The notes beneath the pieces were generated by a model. That model worked only from the letters and a program-made list of their open reading frames with translations. It was not told the DNA's origin and made no database searches. Position numbers and translations under genes: made by a program. A stretch of 18,292 bases of DNA from a virus (taxonomy: Duplodnaviria > Heunggongvirae > Uroviricota > Caudoviricetes). Positions 1,881 through 18,253 of this stretch are shown one piece after another (position 1 is the stretch's first letter; every line of letters begins with the position of its first letter). The stretch is from the IMG/VR virus record IMGVR_UViG_2718218361_000001; one strand, given 5' to 3'.

Positions 1881-2285
1881 TGCCCAACAATGGGGGGACG
1901 AATGCTGTAAAAGTAAAACAATCTGCGATCTCAAAGTTATTGTGTGATTTTTATGTGAGCAGAAGATATTCATCAGAAACGATTATGTAAATCATTTTAT
2001 TTTGCCAACGGCCTCATTGTCGAAAGAAAAGAATACGCCCGTATTTCCTGAATGGATTGACTTTTTTATCCAACCACACTTCAGCGCACTGCGTTTAAAA
2101 AATGCCTCATTCTTATGCGGAATATCATCATTTCATCATGATGTCTTTGATGAGCGGTGAACACAATACACTTGCGCTGTCTCTTCAGGATGAATCCCCT
2201 GGTCTGGTGCCTGTGGGCTGATGTTGCAGCAGAGCTAAGGTCGCTTAAACGCTACTCAGTATTCACTTTTCAGAGGATGAAATTT

Positions 2286-5200
2286 ATGAACAGGACCAGT
2301 CCCCATTATTGTCGCCGCTCAGTACTTTCCTTATTGATATCTGCCTTGATATATGCCCCGCCTGGGATGACGGCCTTCACTCCTGATGTTATTGGTGTGG
2401 TAAACGATGAGACTGTAGATGGCAGCCAAAGAGTAGATGAACGAGGTACAACAAATAACACTCATATTATCAACCATGGCCAGCAGAATGTTCATGGCGG
2501 GGTATCTAATGGAAGTCTTATTGAATCGGGTGGATATCAAGATGTAGGAAGTCATAACAATTTTGTGGGGCAGGCTAATAATACAACCATTAACGGAGGA
2601 AGACAGACAATTCATGACGGGGGCATTTCCACCGGTACGATAATCGACAGTGGCAATCAGGACGTTTATACAGGTGGTATCAGCAATGGAACGACAATTA
2701 AGGGTGGTAATTCACACATAAGTGGGGGGACTGCGAATGGAACCATCATTGATGGTGGAGGGCAGAAAGTAACAACTCAGGGGCATGTTGATGGTACAAC
2801 GATAAATAAGTCCGGTTATCAGGACATCACGCAAGGAAGTATTGCAACGAACACAATCATAAATGGTGGACGACAGTATGTTGAACAGAGCACAGTAGGA
2901 ACAACCACCATTAAAAATGGCGGTGAGCAAAGAGTATATGAAAGCCATGCGCTGGACACGACGATTGAAGGTGGAACTCAGTCTCTGAATAATAAGTCAA
3001 CGGCAAAAATACTCAGATCTATTCTGGTGGTACGCAAATTGTTGATTACACCAGCTCCTCGGATGTTATTGAAGTTTATTCCGGTGGCGTGCTTGATGTT
3101 AGTGGTGGTACGGCAACAAATGTTACCCAGCACGATGGTGCAATTTTAAAAACAAACACTAACGGTACGACGGTGAGCGGTACGAATAGTGAAGGTGCAT
3201 TCTCCATCCACAATCACGTGGCAGACAATGTGTTGCTGGAAAACGGTGGTCATTTAGACATAAACGCATATGGTTCGGCAAACAAGACGATTATTAAAGA
3301 TAAAGGAACAATGTCAGTTTTAACGAATGCTAAAGCTGATGCGACCCGAATAGATAACGGCGGGGTAATGGATGTTACCGGAAACGCGACCAATACCATA
3401 ATCAATGGTGGTACACAGAATATTAATAATCATGGTATTGCCACGGGTACCAATATCAACGGCGGAACGCAAAATATCAAGAGCGGCGGGAAAGCTGACA
3501 CGACAATTATATCCTCCGGGAGCCGGCAGGTTGTTGAGAAAGATGGTACGGCAACTGGCAGCAATATTAGCGCCGGAGGCTCGCTGATTGTCTATACCGG
3601 TGGTATTGCACATGGGGTTAACCAGGAGACGGGCAGTGCTTTAGTTGCCAACACGGGCGCAGGGACTGATATTGAAGGATACAACAAGCTCTCTCACTTC
3701 ACTATTACCGGAGGGGAGGCTAATTATGTTGTGCTGGAAAATACCGGCGAACTGACGGTAGTGGCTAAAACCTCGGCGAAAAATACTACCGTTGATGCTG
3801 GCGGTAAGCTGATTGTCCAGAAGGAGGCTAAAACAGATACCACCAGACTTAATAATGGTGGCGTTCTGGAGGTTCAGGACGGTGGTGAGGCTAAGCATGT
3901 TGAGCAACAATCCGGCGGCGCATTAATTGCTTCCACAACTTCCGGAACCCTTATCGAAGGAACCAACAGTTATGGTGATGCTTTCTACATCAGGAATTCA
4001 GAAGCTAAAAATGTAGTGCTGGAAAACGCTGGCTCATTAACAGTCGTCACTGGTTCCCGGGCAGTTGATACGATTATTAATGCCAACGGCAAAATGGATG
4101 TTTATGGAAAAGATGTTGGCACTGTACTCAATAGTGCTGGCACCCAAACAATATATGCCAGTGCCACTTCTGATAAAGCAAATATCAAAGGTGGCAAGCA
4201 AACGGTATATGGATTAGCCACTGAGGCAAATATCGAAAGTGGTGAACAAATTGTTGATGGTGGGTCAACAGAGAAAACACACATCAATGGTGGCACGCAA
4301 ACCGTTCAGAATTATGGTAAGGCAATCAATACCGATATCGTCTCTGGCCTACAACAAATTATGGCAAACGGGACAGCGGAAGGTTCCATTATTAATGGGT
4401 GTTCACAGGTAGTTAATGAGGGCGGTCTGGCTGAAAACTCGGTGCTTAATGACGGCGGCACACTCGATGTGCGGGAGAAAGGCAGCGCAACGGGGATACA
4501 GCAGAGTAGCCAGGACGCTTTGGTTGCAACCACCAGGGCGACGCGGGTCACAGGAACACGCGCGGATGGCGTCGCGTTCAGCATCGAGCAGGGTGCGGCG
4601 AACAATATCCTGCTGGCAAATGGCGGCGTGTTAACCATGGAGTCAGACACCTCTTCTGACAAAACACAGGTCAATACGGGCGGACGGGAGATCGTCAAAA
4701 CAAAAGCCACTGCGACAGGCACGACGCTCACCGGCGGCGAACAAATCGTCGAGGGGGTGGCGAATGAGACAACGATTAACGACGGCGGAATACAAACAGT
4801 TTCAGCTAACGGAGAGGCAATAAAAACAAAGATCAATGAAGGCGGTACGCTGACAGTTAACGATAATGGCAAAGCGACAGATATCGTCCAGAACAGCGGT
4901 GCCGCTCTCCAGACGAGCACGGCTAACGGTATTGAAATCAGCGGTACTCACCAGTACGGCACTTTTTCCATTTCCGGCAATTTAGCGACCAATATGTTGC
5001 TGGAAAATGGCGGTAATTTATTGGTATTAGCAGGTACCGAAGCTCGCGACTCCACGGTTGGCAGCGGTGGAGCCGCCAACGGCAGTTATCGCAGCAACGG
5101 GCTGGGCGGTCACATTGAAACCGGGATGCGATTTACCGATGGTAACTGGAACCTGACGCCGTATGCATCGTTAACGGGGGTTCACCGCTGATAACCCTGA

Positions 5201-5546
5201 ATATCATTTATCCAATGGCATGGAATCGAAATCAGTCGATACCCGCAGTTTATATCGTGAACTGGGTGCAACGCTGAGTTACAACATGCGTCTGGGGAAC
5301 GGTATGGAAGTTGAGCCGTGGCTGAAGGCGGCTGTGCGCAAAGAATTTGTCGATGATAACCGGGTGAAAGTGAATAGTGACGGTAATTTCGTCAATGATT
5401 TGTCGGGCAGACGTGGAATATACCAGGCAGGTATTAAAGCCTCATTCAGCAGTACGTTAAGCGGGCATCTTGGGGTGGGGTATAGCCATGGTGCCGGTGT
5501 GGAATCCCCGTGGAACGGGGTAGCTGGTGTGAACTGGTCGTTCTGA
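2286..5546 (+). pseudogene. Autotransporter adhesin (AIDA-I/self-associating type) disrupted by frameshifts
   Basis: ATG 2286 with GAGGA 8 nt upstream and a signal-peptide-like N-terminus (MNRTSPHYCRRSVLSLLISALIYA). About 900 aa of degenerate passenger repeats (IxGGxQ, NGGxL) spread over three reading frames. Frame changes sit at an A5 tract (3005-3009) and a G5 tract (5176-5180). C-terminus ends in an aromatic-rich barrel-like segment ...GVNWSF, but the barrel part looks short. Confidence 0.65.
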
Positions 5547-5555
5547 CCATCAACG

Positions 5556-5580
5556 AAAAAGCCCACATCTGTGGGCTTTC
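5556..5580 (+). terminator. Rho-independent terminator-like hairpin after the autotransporter gene
   Basis: GCCCAC-atct-GTGGGC stem-loop (5561-5576) followed by TTTC, 15 nt after the TGA at 5544-5546. A-run upstream means it could act in both directions. Confidence 0.5.
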
Positions 5581-5705
5581 ATGTCACCAGGAGCCGCGGC
5601 TCCTTTGCGTATCCTTTTATGTCTCTTCACCGTCTGGTCGGTGTCCTGCTGAGACTGCTAACTTCCTGTTTTTATTGGTGTTGTCCTTATACCGTCCAAT
5701 CATGA

Positions 5706-5733
5706 TTGGTGGGCTGGCGGAGTATGAATTTGC
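5706..5733. repeat. Degenerate ssrA 3'-end copy; candidate distal att site of the satellite
   Basis: ttggtgg-gctggcgg-agtatgaatttgc resembles ttggtggagctggcgggagttgaacccgc at the ssrA 3' end, roughly 24 of 30 positions by eye. It lies just outside the left arm-type repeats. Confidence 0.45.
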
Positions 5734-5781
5734 ATATTATATTGTTGTTTTTATTGTATATTTATTTTTATGGTCTTTATT

Positions 5782-5805
5782 GGTATACCTAAGCGTATAC
5801 CAATA
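5782..5805. repeat. Integrase arm-type-like repeats, left end of the satellite
   Basis: GGTATACCTAAGCGTATACCAATA matches CGTATACCTAAACGTATACCAATA at 17757-17780 at 22 of 24 positions. Contains two (G/C)GTATAC units 12 bp apart. Confidence 0.5.
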
Positions 5806-5897
5806 GCGGGGTGCAATACTTATTTAACTTAAAAAAAATCATCCCTAAATAGGTCGTTTTATATTCAAAAAACAAAAAAAATCTTTTTTAAATAAGT

Positions 5898-5975
5898 TGT
5901 TCACACTGTTCACTTAGGGTTTTTATCATTCAAAATCAAGGTAATAGAAGTTAACTGTATGGTGAAGAGTGAACA
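5898..5975. repeat. crr-like iteron cluster downstream of the primase gene
   Basis: TGTTCAC at 5898-5904 and 5907-5913, and inverted GTGAACA at 5969-5975. The P4 alpha-binding octamer is TGTTCACC (from memory). Confidence 0.5.
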
Positions 5976-6000
5976 GATAACTCTACATTCTTGCGCCAGC

Positions 6001-6026
6001 GAAAACAAAACCCGGCATCAGCCGGG
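6001..6026 (-). terminator. Rho-independent terminator for the primase operon
   Basis: CCCGGC-atca-GCCGGG hairpin (6011-6026) which on the minus strand is followed by TTTTGTTTTC, 12 nt after the primase stop codon (6038-6040). Confidence 0.65.
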
Positions 6027-6037
6027 TTAGTTGCAAA

Positions 6038-8371
6038 TTATTTTATTGTTGGCTCATCGCACTTGGGTAGCCAGTCTGCATTACTCTCTTCTTTTAAGGT
6101 GAGGTTAGTCTGCATTCCCTGATTAGTTCGCCGCTTCTCATAATGTAGCCCGTACTCCTTCAGCATAACTGGTAGCCCTTTGCCAAACATTGTCAGGCTG
6201 AGGGTATTTTTATAGCCATTAGCCTCCATGTATACGAGATAAGCATGGTAAAGGTATGTACGTGGCTGGCGCGGGACAATATTGGCGTTTCCCATAAACA
6301 TGCCGTTGGTGTCGGGTAATGCCTCAAGATAGCCACAAAAATCAAATGCTGGATCAGCATCACGCTTGATGGTGAGAGCCTCATCAGAATTCTGCTGCGA
6401 CTGAAGCAATGTTCTGGCACTCATCGGATCACTGAAACGCTGCATGAGCTGGCGAACAATCACAGCAAGTTCTTGAGCAATTTTATCTTTTAGCTGCGGA
6501 TCGCGTTCTTCCGGTGCTATCTGCTCAGGAAAATGCAGAATAACTCTCCGGCGAGACACACCACCACTGCGATCAGTGAAGCGCATAGGATTATTATTTA
6601 CGGCCAGGATAACCGCCGGAATATGTGTTGAATAAGCATTCTGATATTTGGGGTCCACAGATACTGCATCGCCACCGGTTATAGCCTTAAGCCCGGCGCC
6701 ATCGCCGCTCCACTTCTCCTGATCAGGCAGGCGAATAAGAGAAAAACCGATCAGAGCTGCACGTTCTCGCGGGGACTCCAGAGTTTCAATTGTCGCTGAG
6801 GTGGCGTTATCCTCTCCTGCAAGCATCGTTGCAATTTCAGCAAGGATACTTTTGCCACTTCCGCCAGGGCCAGTCACTTCCAGAAAGAGCTGCCAGTCAT
6901 AGCGGTTCGCCAGCACCATAAACAGCGCTGCGAGAATAATGTCGCGTTTTGCTGGCTTGCGCCCGGCTGCCCTGTCCAGCCAGCGCCAGAATGCCGGGGC
7001 ATGAGTTTCAAGCGTTTCCCCATTTACCGGTGGCGTGAAATCAACTTCACACAGGGTACGCAGCCACTTCTCTTTACAGTGCGGACTAAACAGCCCTGTT
7101 CGCGTATCGAGGACGCCATTACGAAAACCGATCAGATGACGTGCCGGATTTTGCTGCTGCGGAACAATTAACTTTAATGTTTCCACCAGTGAGGCAATCT
7201 TTCCTGAGGAAAACGGTGCACCGAGGCGCTGGAAAAGGGCTGCGACATCTCGGGCAAAATCAGACTGAGAAATCACTTTCCACGCCCCAGACTCATAGCG
7301 GGATAAAAGCTGCCCGTTCGGATCAACCGCCAGCGCATCCCTGTAATGCTCCCGAACCCTCTGAGCTTTTTCGCTGACACTCATCGCTGTGAATTCTGCT
7401 TCACTCATCGTGTCGAAAGGACTGGCGTTATGTGGCCTCAAAGCCTCAAGAATTGCCTTCCGGGTGGATTCCTCTCCGTAATGGGCAAGCGCATCATTCC
7501 AGTCACCAAAAACCGGTGGCAGCACAATGTCACACTGACACGCTTTTGCAGCAGCTTCAGCCCTGTTCTGGCCTGAACCATTCAGATCTCGGTCCGCTGC
7601 AATAATTAGCTGATACCCCGGATACTTGTTATGGGCAACGCTGGCCAGAGAAAGAAAGTTGACCGCCGAAAATGCCACCATGACGGCTTCTCCAGTCAGA
7701 TGATGAATGGTAAGCGCCGTGGCGTAGCCTTCCGTAATCCACATTCTTCTTACTGAACTCCCGCCCCCTTCTATCAGATGATAGGCCTCCTTAACCTGAC
7801 CTCCTTTAAGAAAACACTTGCTACCATTGCTACTGATAAGCTGAATATTCACCAGCTCCCCGTCAGCGTTATAGAGCGGGACGATCAAATCACCGGGGCG
7901 GAACATCACCCCACCGGTTTTATGAGCTGAAGTCAGCTCATGGCAAATATGTTCCGGGAAACCTTTATGTGTAAGATAAGTATTTCCGGCAGATTCGCGC
8001 GAGGCTTGCAGCAGTCGCGCGGCAAGTGCTGCCGCTGCATCTTTCCCGCTATTGGTATCGGCGGTTAACGTCCTGACTTCGGAATTAGCTATAGACAGGC
8101 CATGTGTCATTCCATGTATCCTGTCAGCTGCTTCACTGATATCCACATTCAGTGCCCTGGTGACAAGCGCTAAACCATCCCCGGCTCCGCACTGATTGCA
8201 GAACCATGTTCCACGTCCTTCCTGATCGTCGAAGCGAAAACGATCTTTACCGCCACAGACCGGACAAGGCTGATGGCGATTTTTCAATATATTCACGCCC
8301 AGCGCTGGCAGAATCTGAGCCCAGTGACCGCGGGCAGCCTTCACGGCCTGACTGACTTTCATTCCTGACAT
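6038..8371 (-). CDS. P4 alpha-type primase/helicase (phage/plasmid primase, P4 family), 777 aa
   Basis: ATG at 8371 with GAGGGAGAA 7 nt upstream. N-terminal zinc-binding CPVCGGKDRFRF...CNQCG, a primase-like central region, and Walker A GPGGSGKS in the C-terminal NTPase domain. Length equals P4 alpha as I recall it. The ORF track's upstream in-frame Met lacks an RBS. Confidence 0.9.
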   Translation of the reverse strand: MSGMKVSQAVKAARGHWAQILPALGVNILKNRHQPCPVCGGKDRFRFDDQEGRGTWFCNQCGAGDGLALVTRALNVDISEAADRIHGMTHGLSIANSEVRTLTADTNSGKDAAAALAARLLQASRESAGNTYLTHKGFPEHICHELTSAHKTGGVMFRPGDLIVPLYNADGELVNIQLISSNGSKCFLKGGQVKEAYHLIEGGGSSVRRMWITEGYATALTIHHLTGEAVMVAFSAVNFLSLASVAHNKYPGYQLIIAADRDLNGSGQNRAEAAAKACQCDIVLPPVFGDWNDALAHYGEESTRKAILEALRPHNASPFDTMSEAEFTAMSVSEKAQRVREHYRDALAVDPNGQLLSRYESGAWKVISQSDFARDVAALFQRLGAPFSSGKIASLVETLKLIVPQQQNPARHLIGFRNGVLDTRTGLFSPHCKEKWLRTLCEVDFTPPVNGETLETHAPAFWRWLDRAAGRKPAKRDIILAALFMVLANRYDWQLFLEVTGPGGSGKSILAEIATMLAGEDNATSATIETLESPRERAALIGFSLIRLPDQEKWSGDGAGLKAITGGDAVSVDPKYQNAYSTHIPAVILAVNNNPMRFTDRSGGVSRRRVILHFPEQIAPEERDPQLKDKIAQELAVIVRQLMQRFSDPMSARTLLQSQQNSDEALTIKRDADPAFDFCGYLEALPDTNGMFMGNANIVPRQPRTYLYHAYLVYMEANGYKNTLSLTMFGKGLPVMLKEYGLHYEKRRTNQGMQTNLTLKEESNADWLPKCDEPTIK

Positions 8372-8385
8372 GATGCAGTTCTCCC

Positions 8386-8709
8386 TCAGTGTAAAACTGG
8401 CTTTTTGATGTGACGGACGCATAACTCATCCATTACGGCTATTCCGAGCTGGGAGAGTGCGGGACAGGACATTAGAGGGCCGGATTCCATCAGGTCTGAA
8501 AGCAGGGCGCAGGCGATTTCCATGCCTTTTGTTTGCCCGTGCTGTCGCAGATAAAATCCTTCAAGCTCACGGGCAATAGCGGTTTCAATTTCATCCAGAG
8601 TCAGCTGCAGGTGGCGGTTTTGCTGATGGCAGGCACTCAGCCATGCGCAGGCTACCGCGCGGCGATACAACGCTACCCGAAGTGAAAGGGAAAGAGTGCG
8701 TGATTTCAT
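8386..8709 (-). CDS. Hypothetical protein (107 aa), immediately upstream of the primase
   Basis: ATG at 8709 with GGAGG 7 nt upstream. Start overlaps the stop of the preceding gene (ATGA). Stop lies 15 nt before the primase start. Confidence 0.6.
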
Positions 8710-8930
8710 TGCACCACCTCCATGTTCATCAGGTCATCCTGGCAACGTTGTACCACGCCATCAAGCTGCTCTGTCATCAGATAAATCAGGGAAACCAGTT
8801 GCTCACATTGAGCATTGGCAGGTTTTTCGTAGCAATCCTGAAGAACAGCCATTCCGGTGACAAGCTCCCCCACGTTACGAAGATGCTTCAGGCGGACAAT
8901 ATCGTCATAAGAGATTGCGGCGTGATTCAT
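8706..8930 (-). CDS. Hypothetical protein (74 aa)
   Basis: Internal ATG at 8930 with GGGAGG 7 nt upstream. Start overlaps the stop of the upstream 63-aa ORF. The longer ORF-track version (87 aa) lacks an RBS. Confidence 0.55.
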
Positions 8931-9121
8931 CACATCACCTCCCGGACAGGCAGGCGAGCAGCAAGGCAAAGCACATACTCATGGACCAGTGAAAGACGTG
9001 CATGATACTCATCGCTGGCGACAATACGCAGCATACTGATACGTGGTTTACGTTCTGCACGACGAACGGCGGCAAAAACAAATATAAATTGAGGATGTGA
9101 TGGGGCGAGGATCGTAGCCAT
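8930..9121 (-). CDS. Hypothetical small protein (63 aa), first gene of the coupled small-ORF cluster
   Basis: ATG at 9121 with GGAG 9 nt upstream. It is the C-terminal 63 codons of a 197-aa ORF whose upstream part has no RBS and a GC-rich, structured character. Confidence 0.4.
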
Positions 9122-9324
9122 AAGGGCAATCTCCAATAAGTAGCGGTTATTGCCACCACCAGAGCTGCAAATCTCATGGGTGATGGCCCGGACGGGGTTT
9201 GCAGTACCGGCCTTATTGGAAACCGGCCAGCCCGAAGGCTGCCCCGCCCGGACCACCATTATCTGACAGGAGCCACGGTGTAAGCACCACAGCCCGAAAA
9301 ATAGGTGTGCCTGAGCAACGACAT

Positions 9325-9346
9325 AAAAAAACACGCTCGACGCGTG
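9325..9346 (-). terminator. Candidate rho-independent terminator between the AlpA-like gene and the small-ORF/primase operon
   Basis: On the minus strand a CACGC-gtcga-GCGTG hairpin (9332-9346) is followed by a U7 run (A7 at 9325-9331 on plus). Stem is only 5 bp. Confidence 0.4.
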
Positions 9347-9474
9347 CTGTGTCGCCAATAAGTTACACGGGCTGCAAATCCCGGCTGCCGATTTTGCGGC
9401 AGCAGAAAAACTATAACTGGAAAGCTTGCCAGGACGCAAGCCACAAAAAAAGAGATGAGACTGCAAAGCCAGAT

Positions 9475-9735
9475 TCACGCATGGTCTCCTTGCTCGCGGG
9501 CTGCAATTCGCGCCGCCATCCATGCATTGACCTCCGACTGTACCCAGGCAACATTTTTTCCACCCAGGGAGATCTGCTGCGGGAAGGCATCACGGCTGAT
9601 AAGGTCGTAGATGGTTGAACGGGATAGCCCGCAAAGGTGCATCACTTCAGGTAATCGTATGAAGCGCTCCTGCTCAGTCGGAACCGGGAGCACCGGAGCA
9701 GCTGGTGCTGGGGTGGAAACGGAAATAGTATGCAT
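9475..9735 (-). CDS. AlpA/Vis-family phage transcriptional regulator (excisionase-like HTH), 86 aa
   Basis: ATG at 9735 with AGAGAGG 7 nt upstream. Translation [46 protein letters not shown] has the AlpA-type HTH signature. Confidence 0.8.
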
Positions 9736-10270
9736 CTCGCTACCTCTCTAATATGTTTTCAGTAGTCCGGACAATTCCATCCGGATTCAGGTAGTTCCTT
9801 ATTATGTTCATATAAGCGGCTCGCGCATGCTTTATTTAATTAGAGTGAAATATTGACTTCTCAAAAAATAAAACAGCTAAAAACCGGATAAAACGGACAA
9901 AAACAAATCATTCCCTCATGGAATATAATAAGGAGCTTCAAGAATAAAAAAGTCTATTACACCAAGCAGGATCGCCGCTCAAGTCTGTACCAGACCATAT
10001 CATTCCGGGCGTTACATCATAAGGATGAAAACAGCGCCGGAATAATAAAAGGGCCAAAAAACGTTCATAAAAAACAGTTCATCATATGTATTAATTAAGT
10101 TAATGGCTAAAAAAATTAAATTACCCGCATCCTTCCGAATTTATCCGGATGTGTTTAGTGAGCATCAGACAGATTCATTTTTATGGATATTTTCCTGAAA
10201 TGCAACCGAGTGTAGGGAGGTTAAGTGTTGAATTTTTAAACAGACATAAGACACATTTTATACTGTATAT

Positions 10271-10484
10271 TGAATAGTGTTGAATACGTGTGAATAGTGG
10301 TGAGGAATAAAAATCCAGTAATAAACTGAAATAAATATAGCGATTTATATGAAAAACAAATATAAGTTTAAATTTATCTCTGTGAACAGTCATGAACAGT
10401 AGATGACCACTTTTATTTAAACCCTACACTCCTTAACCACATGTATTTACTATTCTTTTATGAAAGTGAACAGTAGTGAATAGT
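10271..10484. repeat. ori-like iteron cluster in the AT-rich divergent region
   Basis: About seven copies of GTGAA(C/T)AGT at 10271, 10281, 10291, 10382, 10393, 10466, 10476. Their reverse complement contains TGTTCAC/TATTCAC, the same core as the repeats at 5898-5975. The two clusters are about 4.4-4.5 kb apart. Confidence 0.5.
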
Positions 10485-10549
10485 ATGTATTAAAGGAAGG
10501 GTGAAGATCAGACATGACACCTTTCTCTGGCTAGCCAGAACAAGGTCAT

Positions 10550-10567
10550 TGTTCAGTCACTGGCACA
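10550..10567 (+). promoter_or_regulatory. Candidate Ogr/Delta-dependent late promoter element (TGT-N12-ACA dyad) upstream of the Sid-like gene
   Basis: TGT(10550-10552)-tcagtcactggc-ACA(10565-10567), 73-90 nt upstream of the ATG at 10640. P2/P4 late promoters carry such a dyad near -55 (established knowledge). No clear -35; -10 is weak. Confidence 0.4.
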
Positions 10568-10639
10568 ATCCTCATCGGTAGTGCGCTTGTATGGGCACCG
10601 GCACAATTGACACAACAACAAAACACTACCGGAGCAGCC

Positions 10640-11392
10640 ATGACAACTGTTAACCAGATCCCTGATGCAAACATTACACCCTCCCTCCCACCGAAAATTC
10701 GCGAAGCGGTAGAAAAAGTTAAAGCAGCAAAAGCTGTCTGGCAGGAAGAACGGCGAATACAAACTGAAGCCGCTGCAATGACTGAAACTATCCGTAAACG
10801 TCAGGAAGATACAAAAACGGAGACGCAGGCGCTTAATGATGAATGGCGAAACCTGTTTCGTGAGAATCAGGGGAATATGACGCCACGAATGAAAAAACTG
10901 CGGGCAGAAATCGCCCTGGGACGCGAAACACTTGATGAGTTCGAAGATTTGCTTGAAGCTCACGCCGCAGAAAAAGAATTCCTGCCCTGGAAAACTGCGG
11001 ATGCTGCAAACCGCTACATCAGCGAACATAACCGGCTGATTGAAACTCATGCAGAGTGGCTCTGGAATGAGTTTATGAAGGAACACGGCCAGAAACTTAT
11101 TCAGATCCTTGGATTGCTGAAAATGACTCTGGGGCGAAGCGCTTCTTCCGTTATCGGCGTAGTTCATACCGTAAACGACCCCGAAAGTGTGCTGAAGCAA
11201 TTTATCAGCGAGCAACTCACCGCTCCGGCACTGTCCTGTAACGTATCTTCAACGGATGTTATTGCCCTGCCGGGGATTAGCATTTATGCGGACGATAAAG
11301 CCCTACAGGATGCCAGACAATCACCCAGCCCTGCAGCGCGTTCCCGGATGCTTAAACAGCGTGACATGGTTAAAGGGGAAGAGAAGGGATGA
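10640..11392 (+). CDS. Sid/Psu-family protein, candidate capsid size-determination (Sid-like), 250 aa
   Basis: ATG at 10640 with GGAG 5 nt upstream (ORF-track start 10607 is a TTG without RBS). First gene of the late operon as in P4. Shares the NEFMKEHGQKL block with the Psu-like product (ENFMSEHGNAL) and MTPRMKKLRAEIA with the paralog at 12237 (VTPEMKALRAEYL). Stop overlaps the next start (ATGA). Confidence 0.7.
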   Translation: MTTVNQIPDANITPSLPPKIREAVEKVKAAKAVWQEERRIQTEAAAMTETIRKRQEDTKTETQALNDEWRNLFRENQGNMTPRMKKLRAEIALGRETLDEFEDLLEAHAAEKEFLPWKTADAANRYISEHNRLIETHAEWLWNEFMKEHGQKLIQILGLLKMTLGRSASSVIGVVHTVNDPESVLKQFISEQLTAPALSCNVSSTDVIALPGISIYADDKALQDARQSPSPAARSRMLKQRDMVKGEEKG

Positions 11393-11943
11393 ATCCTGGA
11401 AACATTACTAAGGAAGCTCTCAACAACTATCGCGCGGAGATAAAAAGCTGGCTGACACTACGTAATGTGCAAAGTACCAGCCAACTTCGTCTGGCGGCTC
11501 TGCTGGATACTGAAGAAAAACCGGCAGCATATGCCAGCCAGCTTGAGAATCTTCGTGAGCGTCTTGCTCTCCTCGAATGGCAGATTAACTGCGCCGCTAG
11601 GGACGGTCTTTATGCTCACCAGATTGTGCTGGAAAGCTGTGTTACAAGCGCAACTGAAAACTTCATGAGCGAGCATGGTAATGCACTCACTGACGCTCTG
11701 GCTCCTTTTCTTTGCGCACCATACGGGCTTGAGGCGGCAATGAAAATATTACGCACCGCTGTAGTCCGACAAACCGAAATCCGTACTCCTGTAATTTCAG
11801 CAGCATATAAGAGCGTTATCGACGAAACCGGATTAACGGTGGATGCATCAATGCGAGCTGATGCTTCAGCCATTTTCACCCCGGCAAAACATAAAGTTTT
11901 TCTGGCCCGCCTCAACAGGCTTAATGAAAAAGGAGGGTACTGA
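11389..11943 (+). CDS. psu: Psu-like protein (polarity suppression / capsid decoration family), 184 aa
   Basis: ATG at 11389 preceded by a purine-rich stretch. Blocks EHGNALTDALAP and FTPAKHKVFLAR resemble my recollection of P4 Psu (QHGTALAAALAP, FTPAQNMIFSRK). Size close to P4 Psu (190 aa). Confidence 0.75.
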   Translation: MNPGNITKEALNNYRAEIKSWLTLRNVQSTSQLRLAALLDTEEKPAAYASQLENLRERLALLEWQINCAARDGLYAHQIVLESCVTSATENFMSEHGNALTDALAPFLCAPYGLEAAMKILRTAVVRQTEIRTPVISAAYKSVIDETGLTVDASMRADASAIFTPAKHKVFLARLNRLNEKGGY

Positions 11944-11944
11944 T

Positions 11945-12217
11945 ATGGCCCTGAAATGTCCTGAATGTGGCACGGTCGCACACGCCAGAACCAGCGCCTA
12001 TGAAGCTCCATCGGTTAAACGCTCATGGTATCAGTGCCAGAATCTTGAATGCTCCTGCACATTTACTGCCCTGGAAAGTGTGGACACGATAATTATGAAG
12101 CCCCATAAACCAGTGGCGCCTGAACCTGAATCACAGAGCGATTCTCTTGTACGTCAGCCGCATACACTGGGCCGCTACGGTTCAGCCTGTACCCTTAAAG
12201 ACCGTCATGCACAATAA
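11945..12217 (+). CDS. Ogr/Delta-family zinc-finger late transcription activator, 90 aa (single domain)
   Basis: ATG at 11945 with GGAGG 8 nt upstream, 1 nt after the Psu stop. CPECGTVAHARTS...WYQCQNLECSCTFTALESV matches the Ogr/Delta signature (recalled P2 Ogr: CPLCQHAAHARTS...YHQCQNVNCSATFITYESV). Confidence 0.85.
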   Translation: MALKCPECGTVAHARTSAYEAPSVKRSWYQCQNLECSCTFTALESVDTIIMKPHKPVAPEPESQSDSLVRQPHTLGRYGSACTLKDRHAQ

Positions 12218-12236
12218 ATTGGGGAGGAACAAAAAT

Positions 12237-13049
12237 ATGACAGAACAACAATTGACGGAAAACCAGATTCAGGCCGCAACCGGACACGTAGTAACACTCC
12301 TCGCGAGGGCAAAAAAACCGCTTCAGGATGCGGATTGGCTCATGAATTTGCCTGCAAATGAAATAGCCCGCGAGACGGAAAAACTGACAAAAAGCCTTTC
12401 CTCCGACTGGCAGTCCCGAATTATCGACCTTTACCAAAAAATGCAGGCCTGGGTGGAGGCCAGACAGGCCGAAGAAGCAGCCATTGAGAACCTTCGGGCT
12501 CTGCGCCAGCATCAGACCGAAACTGAGCAGGCCAGCAAAGACAATCGGGCGCAGTTCAGGGAACTGCTTAACCAGAGCGGCGGCATCGTAACGCCGGAGA
12601 TGAAAGCTCTCCGGGCTGAGTATCTGGAACAACAGGAAACAGCCACAGAACTCGCCGGGCTGATTACTGAAAAAGAAGATCAGCTGCCGGTACTGGCTCA
12701 AGCGACCACGCGTAAAGCAAACGTCTATATAAACTGCCATCATGGCATCACTGAGGAGCGTATCGATGAGCTTTTACGAGACTTTTTTATTTTCCACGGT
12801 GCCGAATTGAGCGGCCTGCTCAGGATGAAGTACAGACAATTTGAGCGATATAGCTCAGCACATATACCGGGCATTATTGAAGGCACAAATGATGCAGATA
12901 CGCTGTATCGTGAATTTATCCTGAATCTAATGCTGAAGTGGACGAATGAAATATTACCGTTAAGATTCCGGGACGACGTGATGAGCCTGACCGGTTCAGC
13001 TCCGGTATCAGGATCGCATGACGACAGAAAAAAAAGTAAGCTGTTTTGA
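12237..13049 (+). CDS. Second Sid/Psu-family paralog, 270 aa, function unassigned
   Basis: ATG at 12237 with GGGGAGG 9 nt upstream (ORF-track start 12147 lacks an RBS). Coiled-coil-like; shares sequence blocks with the Sid-like gene at 10640. Followed by a strong terminator. Confidence 0.7.
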   Translation: MTEQQLTENQIQAATGHVVTLLARAKKPLQDADWLMNLPANEIARETEKLTKSLSSDWQSRIIDLYQKMQAWVEARQAEEAAIENLRALRQHQTETEQASKDNRAQFRELLNQSGGIVTPEMKALRAEYLEQQETATELAGLITEKEDQLPVLAQATTRKANVYINCHHGITEERIDELLRDFFIFHGAELSGLLRMKYRQFERYSSAHIPGIIEGTNDADTLYREFILNLMLKWTNEILPLRFRDDVMSLTGSAPVSGSHDDRKKSKLF

Positions 13050-13073
13050 CCTGAACAGAAAAGCTCACTTAAG

Positions 13074-13095
13074 CCCGGCCAGTGCCGGGTTTTTT
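13074..13095 (+). terminator. Rho-independent terminator of the late operon
   Basis: CCCGGC-cagt-GCCGGG hairpin (13074-13089) followed by T6 (13090-13095), 25 nt after the stop at 13047-13049. Confidence 0.7.
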
Positions 13096-13236
13096 GATGT
13101 CTATAGCCTGAGTGCATGTCTATACTGCATGAAATCGCATGACTTTATGCACTTGCATTTTTACTTCCCAGACCAGATAAGGCGCGGTTTAGAGCCTATC
13201 ATGCAACTGCATGAAAACCACTCCCTAAAGCGGGCA

Positions 13237-13255
13237 GGCGTGGCGGGGCTACGAG
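13237..13255. other. Candidate cos-like site (P2/186-family cohesive-end-like sequence)
   Basis: GGCGTGGCGGGG matches the first 12 nt of the P2/186-type 19-nt cohesive end as I recall it (GGCG[A/T]GGCGGGGAAAGCA-). The remaining 7 nt diverge. Position between the late operon and the cargo matches where cos sits in P4. Confidence 0.3.
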
Positions 13256-13629
13256 CGCGCGCTTCGAGGTAAAAGGATGCCGAGCATACAACTCATCGAT
13301 AATGCGGTAGGGTAAATAAGGGGGGGGGCTTGCTATTTTGTACGCTGTAAGGAAGCAAAAGGAAGTCAGTGAGCTAGGGTTAAACAACCCAGCGTATGAG
13401 GTTAAAGTCTAAAATTGAGAACAGCCGTATATGGAGTAATAAAAAGGTGAGGTTGAATCTTTGAGAGGCTGTTTATCAAGGCATAAACCTCTATAGGATG
13501 CATGGTTTTGCATGTGTTTAAATGTTACGCCAATTTAGGCCAACGCCTTTAGGGCGTGGCCTATTTCCATCTTTGCAACTCCATCAAATGCGTCTTCATG
13601 ATGAAGATGAGGATTAGGCGGAAATTGAA

Positions 13630-15399
13630 TTAAAGACGCCACAGACTCTCAAGATCGAGCGTGTCACTTTGCGGTGCACTTTCTTCAGAAAGTCTATCGA
13701 TCTGCACAAGAAGCGGAGTATGAAATGCTGTTCCCGAAATTATGCATGCGCCTGGAGGAAGGGTAGGTATAAGTGTTCTGGATGCTGCATCTAATGTACT
13801 TAAGGTGTTTTTAAGAAGGTAAAGGTCGTTTTCATTTACCAAGCGATGTATGAAATAATTATGAAGTTGTGATACGATTGTTGGCGATATATCAAATGGT
13901 CGCTGGCTTGAAATAGTTACAAAATAACCAAACTTCCTACCTTCCTTTATTATCTCCTCAAATAATTCAAGTCGATAATCTTTCCAAGTCTCAGCCTCCC
14001 TCACAGAGCTTTCGGAAAGAATGTTGTGAGCTTCATCTATTATTAAATGAAAACTTTCTTTTTTGTTGTCCGAAGACTTGTGTTCTATGAAGGAACATTT
14101 CGCAATCATCATCGGAATCGTTTTTTTTATGGTTTGATTGCATTCTTTGAGAGAGATTATGGATATTGGTTTATAGCTTTGTTGAGCGCGGTTTATTTCT
14201 ATAACCTTTGCTAGAGATGAGCTCATTGCTATTATTTTGTTTATCAAAGGATATATGTGATCATATTGAACATAGTTTCTGGATACAGAATTTATTAATT
14301 GCAGTGTTGCACGTATAGCAATTTCATCAAATACACTAGTAACATGGAATTGGCTATTGTATGTTGCTTGAGTGTGTTTTAAAACTTCAGCAGTAGTGTC
14401 AAGCCAACCCGAAGGGTGTGTATATTTTTCTTGGTTTGAATGCCAAGTAAAGAGAGAGAGTTCATCTCGTATCTTTTGTTGATCGTTCTCATCGAAATAA
14501 GGCAGTAGACTTTTTAATAAATTAACGGTCTCTTTGTGAGGATTTGTTCCAAACATTATTTCAATTGTTCTTTTTAAATATGTGTTAAGATCGTCATCAT
14601 ACTTTAACTTGCTCTTTATTAAATGTGTAAGAAATGGTTTTTGTGTTTTCTCGGTTGCAGAGAATAAAACTGACAACAGTTCATCATCCCAAAATTCTTT
14701 TTCACCGAAATATATCTTATCACCATCTTTTTTTGTGCTAAGTTTTGTGGAGTGACATAGTTCTGGAAAGGAATTCTCTAATGTCCCATATTCACCATTG
14801 AAATCAATCAATACGAAATTTGACTTATCGATCAATTGTTGTTTGTTTTCAATTCTATTGAAAAGTGATTGATATATTTTTGCTAGAGTATTTGACTTTC
14901 CACTTCCTGTATTTCCAAAAATACCTATATGAGAATTAAAAACACCGTTTATGGGAATGTTTATTGGTAATTCCTCTAGCATGGATTTGCCAATGTTAAT
15001 GAGCGGAGTTTTTGTATTTTTGCTAAAACTATAGATTTCAGATATTTTATCATCCGAAATTAAATAAAGTCTATCATTTATCATTGGGAGATATTTTATT
15101 CCAGAGTAGAATTTACCCTCAAAAAAATACCCGAGAATATTTAGTTCAACGAATCTTTCATATTTTTTCTGCTCAATGTCATCAGTACGAATGTTAAAGT
15201 TCTCAACAATTTCCTCACCTATGATCTTACCTACAATGTCCTGATAACCTTTACGAACTAATACAAATTCATTTATTGATATACCACGCAATATTTTTCC
15301 ATTGTGGAAGTATGTTGATTGGAACAAGTCATGGTTTATTTTTGCTTTGACAGTGGTTCCTTTTACTTGGGTCACTTTACCTATATTCAGTTCGTCCAT
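13630..15399 (-). CDS. HerA-like (FtsK/HerA superfamily, DUF87-type) ATPase, 589 aa; second gene of the cargo pair
   Basis: ATG at 15399 with AGGAGA 9 nt upstream (ORF-track start 15408 is a TTG). Walker A GIFGNTGSGKSNT and Walker B HLIIDEAHN; N-terminal beta-rich region before the ATPase core. About 28-30% GC by hand count. Overlaps the upstream gene by 13 nt. Confidence 0.85.
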   Translation of the reverse strand: MDELNIGKVTQVKGTTVKAKINHDLFQSTYFHNGKILRGISINEFVLVRKGYQDIVGKIIGEEIVENFNIRTDDIEQKKYERFVELNILGYFFEGKFYSGIKYLPMINDRLYLISDDKISEIYSFSKNTKTPLINIGKSMLEELPINIPINGVFNSHIGIFGNTGSGKSNTLAKIYQSLFNRIENKQQLIDKSNFVLIDFNGEYGTLENSFPELCHSTKLSTKKDGDKIYFGEKEFWDDELLSVLFSATEKTQKPFLTHLIKSKLKYDDDLNTYLKRTIEIMFGTNPHKETVNLLKSLLPYFDENDQQKIRDELSLFTWHSNQEKYTHPSGWLDTTAEVLKHTQATYNSQFHVTSVFDEIAIRATLQLINSVSRNYVQYDHIYPLINKIIAMSSSLAKVIEINRAQQSYKPISIISLKECNQTIKKTIPMMIAKCSFIEHKSSDNKKESFHLIIDEAHNILSESSVREAETWKDYRLELFEEIIKEGRKFGYFVTISSQRPFDISPTIVSQLHNYFIHRLVNENDLYLLKNTLSTLDAASRTLIPTLPPGACIISGTAFHTPLLVQIDRLSEESAPQSDTLDLESLWRL

Positions 15400-16502
15400 G
15401 TTACCCAATCTCCTGTTTCTGATTTGAAAATTCTATCAATAAAAGTATCAAAAGAAATTTTATGATCAACTTCTTTAGGATAAATGAAGGTTATTCTGGG
15501 GTCATTTACTGTATTATTTATATCTTGCTTGCTTTGATTGTTGTAGCAAAAAACAAATACTTTTAGTGTTGGATTACTTAAAGATCTTTTTATTATTTCA
15601 AGAATGTGCTCGTCTTGAAATGAAAACCCAAAACAAATTAATACAGTTTGTGGTTTCTCTAATTCATAGCTTAATAATCTTAAGCTCTGATAGTAGTGTT
15701 GCTGAAATACTGTTTCTGAAAACTTTTCTTTGGTCGGATTAACTATCGCGAGTGAGTTATAGTATGATTTGAATTCTTCAAGAGAATTTTGGTCATTAGC
15801 ATTTAAATCCAAGTAATCAGCAAGATCATCGTTAGTTGTATTTAGGGTAATTACTAAATCATCTATGGTTTTATCTGTCTCTAAATTTATTAATTCAGGT
15901 GAAACGCTTGGGTAGTTGATGCTTATTGTTTCATTCTCATCTCTTTTCCATGAGACCGAACCATGCATTTTAATTAAATTGATAGTTGGTAACTCATGTT
16001 TGTACATATCATGAGTTCCTTGATGCCAAGTAGTAATATGAAAATTACTAATGTTTAATCTTCTGTTTTTAAAACCTATAGCACCATCATTGAAATGGAA
16101 TGTTTTCTTAGCTAATGCATTGTCTGCTGCTGTTTCAAAAAAAAGATCATAGTTAGTTGTGAAAATATTGGCTCGTCTTATTTGATTGGAACCTTTTTTT
16201 TCTAATAAAGTAACAAGTTCATCTAGAAAATCTGTATAGCTATTTATTGTTGAGGTGTATTTTTTGTTTTCTACACTTGGCTCAATGCAAAATGTTTTTC
16301 TAATGATTTTATTGAAATAAGAACATAAGATAAAATCCTTAACATCGATACAATCTTTATGCGTTAATAATGTCTCATAAGTGGTGTTTTCAGCAAGCCA
16401 CAGCGTTGGTATATACGATGCTGAAGCTCCTGAGCCAAATAGAAAGTTAATATTTTTATCATAAATATTTGATGCTTTGCATGGGAATTCTCTCGTGCTC
16501 AT
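15387..16502 (-). CDS. SIR2-like (sirtuin-fold, predicted NADase) protein, 371 aa; first gene of the cargo pair
   Basis: ATG at 16502 with AAGGA 8 nt upstream, only 10 bp after the integrase stop. Motifs FLFGSGASAS (glycine-rich loop), TTNYD and MHGS (His-Gly) are typical of SIR2-family domains. AT-rich like its partner. Confidence 0.85.
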   Translation of the reverse strand: MSTREFPCKASNIYDKNINFLFGSGASASYIPTLWLAENTTYETLLTHKDCIDVKDFILCSYFNKIIRKTFCIEPSVENKKYTSTINSYTDFLDELVTLLEKKGSNQIRRANIFTTNYDLFFETAADNALAKKTFHFNDGAIGFKNRRLNISNFHITTWHQGTHDMYKHELPTINLIKMHGSVSWKRDENETISINYPSVSPELINLETDKTIDDLVITLNTTNDDLADYLDLNANDQNSLEEFKSYYNSLAIVNPTKEKFSETVFQQHYYQSLRLLSYELEKPQTVLICFGFSFQDEHILEIIKRSLSNPTLKVFVFCYNNQSKQDINNTVNDPRITFIYPKEVDHKISFDTFIDRIFKSETGDWVTWTN

Positions 16503-16512
16503 TTTTATATCC

Positions 16513-17706
16513 TTACTTGCTATTCACTATGAAATTGCCCCACCAATTCATAAGGCCCTTTCTTTTTTCAAGGTAAGTGGAACGATTGTATGCTCTGCGA
16601 ACCTCATTCTTCTCAATGTGAGCAAGCGCTGCTTCAATCACATCTGAATTTAAACCAGCTTCATTCATTGCTGTACTCGCTATAGAGCGTAAACCATGTG
16701 CAACTAATTTACCCCCATATCCAATCCGTTTTAAAGCAGCATTTGCCGTCTGGCTATTCATTGGTTGCTTTGGGTCATTCCGACTCGGAAAAACATGTTC
16801 ACGATGCGCACTGATAGGCTTCATAACATCAAGAATCTCTAATGCCTGAAGAGATAGTGGAACTATGTGCTCGCGCTTAGCCTTCATACGTTCGGCTGGA
16901 ATGGTCCAGAGCTTTGCTTCGAGATCGATCTCTGCCCACCGAGTACCAGATGCTTCAGAAGGACGCACAAGGGTCAGAAGCTGCCATTCAATGAGACAGC
17001 GAGTCGTAACAGATAGATTTGACATTACTAGAGAACGCATCAGCTTTGGTAATTCTTCTGGCCGAAGCGTCGGCATATTTTGTTTTTTTGGCTTTTCAAA
17101 GGCCATTCCAACACCTGATGCTGGGTTTGCATCAATCAGACCAGTGTTTACGGCATAAATCATTATCTCGTTAATACGCTGCACCAGTCGACGTACCGTC
17201 TCAAGCGCTCCACGAGCTTTTATTGGCTCAAGGGCTTCAACCAATGTTCGTGCTTTGATTTGCTGAACAGGGATTTCACCGATTGCAGGAAATACGTCTT
17301 TCTCCAGTGAGCGCCAAATGTCTTTTGCGTAGTCAGGGGTAACGCTTTTGCTTTTTAGCTTGAACCAGTTAGCGGCGACCGTTGAAAAAATACTTTCCAG
17401 AGCGATTTGCTGCTCTTCCTCTGCGGCTTCGGCTTGAATTTGTGGGTCGATTTTGTTGGCTAGTAAAGCAAGGTAATCCGCTCTTAGACTTCGAGCATCA
17501 GCAAGTGAAAGGGAGGGGAAGGCTCCGAGCCCCATCATGGTCCGCTGCTTTGTTGCCGGACGTAGATAGCGAAAGCGCCATAGTTTCTTGCCGCTGGTTT
17601 TCACTAGCAGGAAAAGTCCATCGCCATCATGCAGCGTTAGATCCTTATCGATTGCTTTTGCGCGCAGAACTTCGGTGTTGGTCAGGGGGCGTGTTGTCCG
17701 TGCCAC
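16513..17706 (-). CDS. int: P4-type tyrosine integrase (IntA-like), 397 aa
   Basis: GTG start at 17706 with AAGGAG 8 nt upstream. N-terminus MARTTRPLT...DGDGLFLLV and C-terminal HGLRSIAST...VRRAYNRSTY (H-x-x-R and catalytic Tyr) resemble my recollection of CP4-57 IntA. Lies next to the ssrA 3' end in the same orientation. Confidence 0.92.
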   Translation of the reverse strand: MARTTRPLTNTEVLRAKAIDKDLTLHDGDGLFLLVKTSGKKLWRFRYLRPATKQRTMMGLGAFPSLSLADARSLRADYLALLANKIDPQIQAEAAEEEQQIALESIFSTVAANWFKLKSKSVTPDYAKDIWRSLEKDVFPAIGEIPVQQIKARTLVEALEPIKARGALETVRRLVQRINEIMIYAVNTGLIDANPASGVGMAFEKPKKQNMPTLRPEELPKLMRSLVMSNLSVTTRCLIEWQLLTLVRPSEASGTRWAEIDLEAKLWTIPAERMKAKREHIVPLSLQALEILDVMKPISAHREHVFPSRNDPKQPMNSQTANAALKRIGYGGKLVAHGLRSIASTAMNEAGLNSDVIEAALAHIEKNEVRRAYNRSTYLEKRKGLMNWWGNFIVNSK

Positions 17707-17728
17707 TGTGGCCGCTCCTTCATGAGTT

Positions 17729-17775
17729 GGTATACGCTTTTAGGTATACATCCTACCGTATACCTAAACGTATAC
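17729..17775. repeat. Integrase arm-type-like repeat cluster between int and ssrA
   Basis: Four (G/C)GTATAC units starting at 17729, 17743, 17757 and 17769 (spacing 14, 14, 12 bp). The last two are duplicated at 5782-5805. Confidence 0.5.
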
Positions 17776-17890
17776 CAATAATCACAGGATTTAGCCGGAT
17801 ATTGTCGGACAACGACAGACACAAAAAAGCCCGCAGGGCTTATGCCGTGCGGGCTTTCTGTACTTCACCGGACGAATCCGGATCATTATT

Positions 17891-18253
17891 TGGTGGAGCT
17901 GGCGGGAGTTGAACCCGCGTCCGAAATTCCTACATCCTCGGTACTACATGCTTAGTCAGTCTTTACATTCGCTTGCCAGCTGCGGACGGACACGCCACTA
18001 ACAAACTAGCCTGATTAAGTTTTAACGCTTCAACCCCAGGCAGGGCTTCCACGCGATCTCTTTTGGGTTTGACCTCTCTTGATCCCCGTCCTAAGAGCGG
18101 AGGCTAGGGAGAGAGGGCTCTAAGCAGGTTATTAAGCTGCTAAAGCGTAGTTTTCGTCGTTTGCGACTATTTTTTGCGGCTTTTTACGAGGCCAACCGCC
18201 CCTCGGCATGCACCTTGGGTTTCGCAAATCCCGTCGAATCCAGAATCAGCCCC
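17891..18253 (-). ncRNA. ssrA: tmRNA (SsrA), 363 nt
   Basis: Reverse complement begins GGGGCTGATTCTGGATTCGACGGG and ends GGTTCAACTCCCGCCAGCTCCACCA, matching E. coli ssrA as I recall it. Contains GCAAACGACGAAAACTACGCTTTAGCAGCTTAA, which encodes the ANDENYALAA tag peptide. Confidence 0.95.

Follow-up and report, generated by a model that had tools for sequence, protein, structure and literature searches.

Satellite phage P4 (NC_001609; 11,624 bp) carries its modules in the order integrase gene (int), accessory cassette, cos, late operon, vis, CI RNA, cnr, alpha and crr (the cis replication region), and its integrase targets leuX. The P4-like satellites of E. coli contain a variable defence cassette between the late genes with cos and int, as well as cnr and a 75-amino-acid gene upstream of alpha (PMC9122126, PMC8628076). 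This defence hotspot lies between psu and int, next to cos, and SIR2+HerA is among its contents (Rousset et al. 2022, PMC9122126). The definition of the P4-like family allows one missing component (PMC8628076). CP4-57 of E. coli K-12 is a 22-kb decayed island that lacks alpha, sid, psu, delta and cos; its attachment (att) site is the 3′ end of ssrA, the gene for transfer-messenger RNA (tmRNA). Here we describe an element carried on an 18,292-nucleotide stretch of DNA (the window), IMG/VR virus record IMGVR_UViG_2718218361_000001. We are confident that this element, 12,184 bp in length, is a P4-like satellite of intact structure, and that a tyrosine integrase of the IntA type placed it at the 3′ end of the tmRNA gene in E. 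coli. The element shares the overall module order of P4, shows no difference in kind from the E. coli P4-like satellites, and uses the same attachment site as CP4-57. A P4-like satellite with hotspot cargo at ssrA is a known kind of element; this individual has not been characterised previously.

Genome comparisons were carried out with 5426 complete E. coli genomes, and the window was found to be E. coli chromosome. The region from 5706 to 17890 was present at 100% identity in strains S21, H14 and PO06101, and parts of it matched 1126 of the genomes. The integration target, ssrA, lies at 17891–18253 on the minus strand, where the ARAGORN and Rfam predictions agree. We reconstructed the empty site by fusing window positions 5460–5706 to 17891–18140 and searched for the resulting 497-nucleotide sequence. 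It was found as a single piece with 100% identity in many E. coli strains, and at least 80% of it was covered in one place in 2512 genomes. As the empty site was found intact at 100% identity, we conclude that the insert consists of exactly nucleotides 5707–17890. A first-pass annotation of the window had proposed insertion at ssrA between 5706 and 17890, and had suggested comparison with genomes lacking the insert as a check. That comparison defined the att junctions, proved the insertion at ssrA against unoccupied sites, and showed the proposed boundaries to be correct to within one base.

The integrase gene (16513–17706, minus strand) lies next to ssrA, as expected from the annotated tyrosine integrase at the 3′ end of an RNA gene. 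The 397-amino-acid protein contains all three Pfam domains, i.e. arm-binding, central and catalytic. It is 61% identical to K-12 IntA, the integrase of CP4-57, with which it aligns end to end, and 36% identical to P4 Int, again over its full length; residues R248, H337, R340, H363 and Y373 can be read in these alignments. The distal att core (5707–5722) has the form TGGTGG-GCTGGCGG-AG; it copies the 3′ end of ssrA imperfectly and lacks the base for tmRNA U357. The psaA remnant of K-12, which is the distal core of CP4-57, has the identical sequence. At the proximal att junction (17884–17908) TTGGTGG is followed by the intact ssrA 3′ end. Thus the 7-bp block TTGGTGG is common to both junctions, and the ssrA-side copy runs on as the intact gene end TGGTGGAGCTGGCGGGAG.

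Arm-type integrase sites centred on GTATAC are present at both ends, two distally (5782–5805) and four beside int (17729–17780). Both distal sites fall within a 23-nucleotide repeat that has one copy at each end (5783–5805 and 17758–17780), with 22 of the 23 positions matching, and the GTATACS motif occurs 13 times in comparison with 2.1 expected, almost always at the two ends. The matching arm-type repeats of the first-pass annotation were therefore recovered. The arm-type repeats of CP4-57 are of the GGGCC type rather than the GTATAC type; in common with the element, CP4-57 has the identical distal core, a similar hairpin beside the core and an AlpA regulator. A duplicated core and a position at the 3′ end of ssrA, established here by comparison with the empty site, identify an integration module of the IntA/CP4-57 type, in contrast to the leuX-targeting module of P4.

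The replication module is homologous to that of P4. Alpha (6038–8371, minus strand) encodes a primase-helicase with zinc ribbon, Toprim and D5_N/DUF5906 helicase domains and a C-terminal Pox_D5 domain. Like P4 alpha the protein is 777 amino acids long, and the two are 73% identical in an alignment that spans 773 of the 777 residues. An intrinsic terminator (6009–6028, minus strand) follows alpha at the position of P4 t-alpha. Eight copies of the iteron GTGAAYAG were found versus 1.06 expected, six of them in clusters at 5906–5976 and 10290–10483, so that iterons flank alpha on both sides. One cluster belongs to a crr-like region (5875–5990) containing the iterons TGTTCACACTGTTCAC and GGTGAAGAGTGAACA; it corresponds to one copy of the 120-bp unit, whereas P4 crr has two such units. 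The other, an ori-like cluster of GTGAACAG/GTGAATAG (10290–10483), aligned with the type-1 repeats of P4 ori. The crr, ori, Psid and cos regions were all collinear with P4 in the alignment.

Regulatory and immunity functions are encoded on the minus strand between the two iteron clusters. The AlpA/Vis excisionase-regulator (9475–9735) matched Pfam Phage_AlpA (3e-20) and is 64% identical to P4 ORF88; like alpha and the iterons on both sides of it, it was found where it had been annotated. P4-like antisense immunity is indicated by a CI RNA at 9176–9263 (Rfam C4 family, 86 bits) and by an early-operon leader with CI-RNA target sequences at 9326–9416 (Rfam isrK and c4-a1b1). P4 itself gave C4 and isrK matches in the same arrangement. 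Cnr (8386–8709; DUF5375) is 71% identical to P4 ORF106. It is preceded by a gene for a 74-amino-acid protein (8706–8930; phrog_10110), which occupies the place of P4 epsilon and orf151; no homologue of orf151 was found in the element. This small protein appears to be a member of the ~75-amino-acid family that is present in 61% of P4-like elements and absent from P4 (Moura de Sousa and Rocha 2022, PMC8628076). An open reading frame (ORF) annotated as 'Icd-like' (8930–9478) overlaps the RNAs, and its coding status is uncertain for this reason; its last 108 amino acids are 64% identical to P4 ORF137. For the epsilon/'ash' component, P4p09, the true P4 epsilon, is without a homologue and the ORF137 'cI/ash' region is conserved.

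The late operon, which is transcribed from the plus strand, begins with a Psid-like promoter region (10550–10605) in which two TGT-N12-ACA boxes both aligned with the P4 boxes. The promoter is followed by genes for a Sid-like capsid size determination protein of 250 amino acids (10640–11392; phrog_6165, 1.7e-88; 22% identical to P4 Sid), Psu of 184 amino acids (11389–11943; Pfam Psu, 5e-33) and Delta of 90 amino acids (11945–12217; Pfam Ogr_Delta, 3.7e-16). The last gene of the operon, ORF270 (12237–13049), encodes a divergent Sid/Psu-family protein (Sid PHROG family, 1e-20), and an intrinsic terminator (13071–13092) closes the operon. BLASTP comparison of the Sid-like protein, Psu and Delta with the P4 proteins gave E-values of 1e-9 to 4e-10, i.e. 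these proteins are recognisable but distant. A late operon with Psu and an Ogr/Delta zinc finger had been annotated and is present. The accompanying claim that every module follows the P4 order held for the overall arrangement of modules and failed inside this operon, where the order is sid-psu-delta plus ORF270 as opposed to sid-delta-psu in P4. Moreover, P4 Delta is a tandem of two zinc-finger domains whereas the Delta protein of the element has one, and the extra Sid paralogue ORF270 is not found in P4.

The cos-like site of the first-pass annotation was located at 13108–13275. This region is homologous to the cos regions of P4 and of P2-like phages, with 75–77% identity to those of P2-like phages of Escherichia, Yersinia and Klebsiella. 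Collinearity with P4 cos includes the TGCATG repeats and the CAAAGCGGGC/GGCGNGGCGGGG/CGCGCGC blocks. The 19 nucleotides aligned with the P4 cohesive end are GGCGTGGCGGGGCTACGAG (13237–13255); as counted from the alignment, 13 of the 19 positions match P2/P4 and 18 match Yersinia phage MLG42. The overhang is therefore that of another P2-like lineage, and a matching helper cos would have the form GGCGTGGCGGGG(A/C)TACGAG. As expected of a satellite, the element therefore shares its cos with P2-like helpers, being collinear in this region with both P4 and a Peduoviridae cos. A search with the P2/P4 19-mer gave no match, but a cos site was evident in the alignment, one of a different cos type.

The cassette between cos and int, annotated as variable cargo, was identified as SIR2+HerA (13630–16502, minus strand), which Gao et al. 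reportedly described in 2020 as an anti-phage system. The SIR2 effector gene (15387–16502; PADLOC SIR2, 2.7e-66) and the HerA ATPase gene (13630–15399; PADLOC HerA, 7.3e-200) are adjacent, overlap by 13 nucleotides and have the same two-gene layout, SIR2 then HerA, as the known system. The proteins are only distant relatives of those in solved SIR2-HerA complexes (such as 8j4u, 8su9 and 8yhx), with E-values of 1e-11 to 1e-31 over partial stretches. The GC content of the cargo is ~30–36% in comparison with roughly 46–54% for most of the backbone. P4 carries gop, beta and cII as its cargo instead. Sister elements have backbones with ~90–96% identity and, where this element has SIR2+HerA, contain DUF262/HEPN/Dcm, Hachiman, or AAA+DUF3226 together with a P2 portal pseudogene. 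The proteins of the element gave no accession match in a part of the supplementary files of Rousset et al. 2022 (PMC9122126). Our findings agree with published work in which satellites carry defence cassettes. Their importance hardly goes beyond annotation: a 12-kb block without a label in three E. coli genomes of RefSeq proves to be a complete P4-like satellite with SIR2-HerA.

Taken together, the integrase, alpha, Sid/Psu/Delta and AlpA/Vis components of the P4-like core set (SatelliteFinder; Moura de Sousa and Rocha) are all present in the element. No frameshifts were found, and all backbone genes have the same length as in three related elements, in agreement with the earlier description of the element as intact. 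Truncation of int or alpha on alignment had been named as one result that would speak against the annotation; both genes are full length. Several observations nevertheless weigh against our reading of the region, some of which would be expected of a P4-derived but immobile island, i.e. a domesticated defence locus that retains satellite genes but has lost excision and packaging, as CP4-57 in K-12 would have. We consider this alternative unlikely. Epsilon, the P4 protein that derepresses resident P2, had no homologue in the element by BLASTP or tblastn. The distal att core is imperfect, with two single-base deletions relative to the ssrA copy, and in K-12 this site is occupied by a cryptic element that has decayed. 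Identical copies of the element are present in only 3 of the 5426 genomes, which gives no indication that it spread recently. A search for the P2/P4 cos 19-mer that allowed up to 3 mismatches found none, and therefore P2 itself may not package the element; its helper is likely to be a P2-like phage from another lineage. We located no helper prophage in the host genomes. The neighbouring ileY tRNA of strain H14, where a 186-type helper prophage was sought, had only housekeeping genes. The chromosome of strain S21 (NZ_CP010230.1) contains a second, unplaced match to the satellite cos region that might belong to a P2-like helper prophage or to a further satellite.

Set against an immobile island are the full-length genes, with lengths like those of the sister elements, and the conservation of cos, ori, crr, Psid and the arm sites. 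In addition, epsilon is dispensable if the helper arrives by infection or is induced on its own, which is established P4 biology. The same distal core, of the same imperfect form, was also shown experimentally to support excision of CP4-57 (PMC10107115). We thus favour a structurally intact satellite, and its sequence suggests that it may be mobilised. The integrase, AlpA and primase-helicase are shared with the phage-inducible chromosomal islands (PICIs) of enterobacteria, and in principle the element could be of that type. PICIs are expected to lack P4-type sid, psu, delta and CI RNA and to carry PICI-specific packaging-redirection genes. The element does not fit this description, as it has Sid, Psu, Delta, Cnr, CI RNA, P4-type iterons and a cos of the P2/P4 type, and its alpha is 73% identical to the P4 counterpart over the full length; the probability that it is a PICI is close to negligible. 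It is also very improbable that the two ends do not form a genuine att pair, and that the block was instead assembled by recombination or from tandem islands. The ssrA locus does collect tandem and hybrid islands, as illustrated by a sister element in E. coli D3, which has a second island beyond a partial ssrA, and by hybrid junctions in IMG/VR contigs. However, precise deletion of 5707–17890 recreates a site with 100% identity to natural ones, matching arm repeats are found at both ends, and there are sister elements with the same two ends.

For an intact satellite, a life cycle can be proposed by homology with P4. In the quiescent state, CI RNA would pair with its targets in the early-operon leader and thereby terminate transcription. 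When a P2-like helper is active, the Ogr and Cox-type activators of the helper, together with the Delta protein of the satellite, would be expected to activate transcription from the Psid-like promoter and from the one upstream of vis. The element would then be excised by Vis and Int, and alpha would replicate it from the ori iterons with the assistance of crr. The Sid-like and Psu proteins are predicted to remodel helper capsids, and the helper terminase to cut the satellite cos. The SIR2+HerA cassette between cos and int, presumably acquired horizontally, is probably expressed in the lysogen. Through abortive infection via NAD+ depletion, this system may protect the host and, with it, the satellite.

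Position U357 of tmRNA is part of the G·U identity pair for alanylation. In published sequencing of the sites left by excision of CP4-57 from K-12 (PMC10107115) and of CP4So from Shewanella, the U357 base was deleted, and the tmRNA was inactive. Excision of the element could in principle yield either of two attB forms, TGGTGGAGC, in which tmRNA is restored, or TGGTGGGC, in which U357 is deleted and tmRNA is inactivated. The published U357 deletion implies strand exchange in the GCTGGCGG block. Against such a deletion, the natural unoccupied sites are wild type, and when a U357-deleted empty site was searched for in the E. coli genomes the best match, at 99.7%, was the wild-type site. The att-core pattern was found in 14 viral contigs of IMG/VR, all without the U357 base. 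Four of these contigs were read: one contains a junction with E. coli ypjA-side flank, one a junction with an unidentified left flank, and two contain hybrid junctions between neighbouring elements; none of the four showed a circular form. The hybrid junctions lack the U357 base, as predicted by exchange inside TTGGTGG. Exchange may thus occur in the GCTGGCGG block or in TTGGTGG; sequence alone does not decide between the two. By analogy with CP4-57, loss of the satellite would disable trans-translation, i.e. if excision removes U357, satellite loss would be tied to loss of this function.

The two hybrid junctions (IMG/VR contigs L015, 10540–10660, and L009, 3200–3320) are attP-like: in each, a satellite-type integrase-side arm is connected via the core with the distal arm from another element. 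The distal arm in L015 is CP4-57-like, and L009 looks like part of a tandem arrangement at ssrA. We also searched plasmids for a free attP. The only candidate, the small record AP027503, was rejected as a fragment of an island riddled with IS elements rather than a P4 plasmid.

ORF270 is 30% identical to the Sid-like protein of the element itself and is present in only 8 of the 5426 E. coli genomes. Homologues with 57–97% identity occur in satellites of Enterobacter, Citrobacter, Klebsiella and Pantoea, with a Pfam Psu assignment. An AlphaFold model of the protein (mean predicted local distance difference test score, 68) consists of a long helical hairpin. Foldseek comparison of this model with the PDB gave no significant match; the best template modelling score was obtained with P4 Sid (7jw1_E; 0.45–0.50, E = 0.11), such that the modelled likeness to the P4 Sid fold is only supportive. 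ORF270 might be a second helper-manipulating protein, acting either as a scaffold or decoration protein for the capsid of a different P2-like helper or as a second Rho inhibitor, although we regard this assignment as doubtful. If it is true, ORF270 would point to a capsid-redirection scheme, particular to a sub-lineage of satellites, that is not seen in P4.

A few additional features were observed in the related elements. The D3 sister, which carries Hachiman as its cargo, is in tandem with another island (L007, 595–620 and 13020–13200). On the ssrA side, only ~50 nucleotides of ssrA remain at the junction before foreign DNA begins, and four further bases are missing from the distal core of this sister. 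The hotspot of the sister in E. coli MB06172 contains a frameshifted fragment of a P2-type portal gene beside cos (L008, 10017–10879), which suggests an earlier recombination event between satellite and helper phage at cos. In the element described here, the early-operon leader matched isrK, an Rfam family described from Salmonella, at window positions 9326–9403, as did the leader in P4; isrK would thus seem to be the Rfam counterpart of the P4-type leader with the CI-RNA targets.

According to the RefSeq annotation of strain H14, the gene order around the element is ypjCB, a pinH remnant, disrupted ypjA, the element, ssrA, smpB and ratA. In the window ypjA (2157–5546) is broken into ORFs of 330, 700 and 108 amino acids, and it is annotated as frameshifted and without its C-terminus. 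In K-12 and in strain HD12480, ypjA, an adhesin-like autotransporter gene, is a single gene of 4581 nucleotides.

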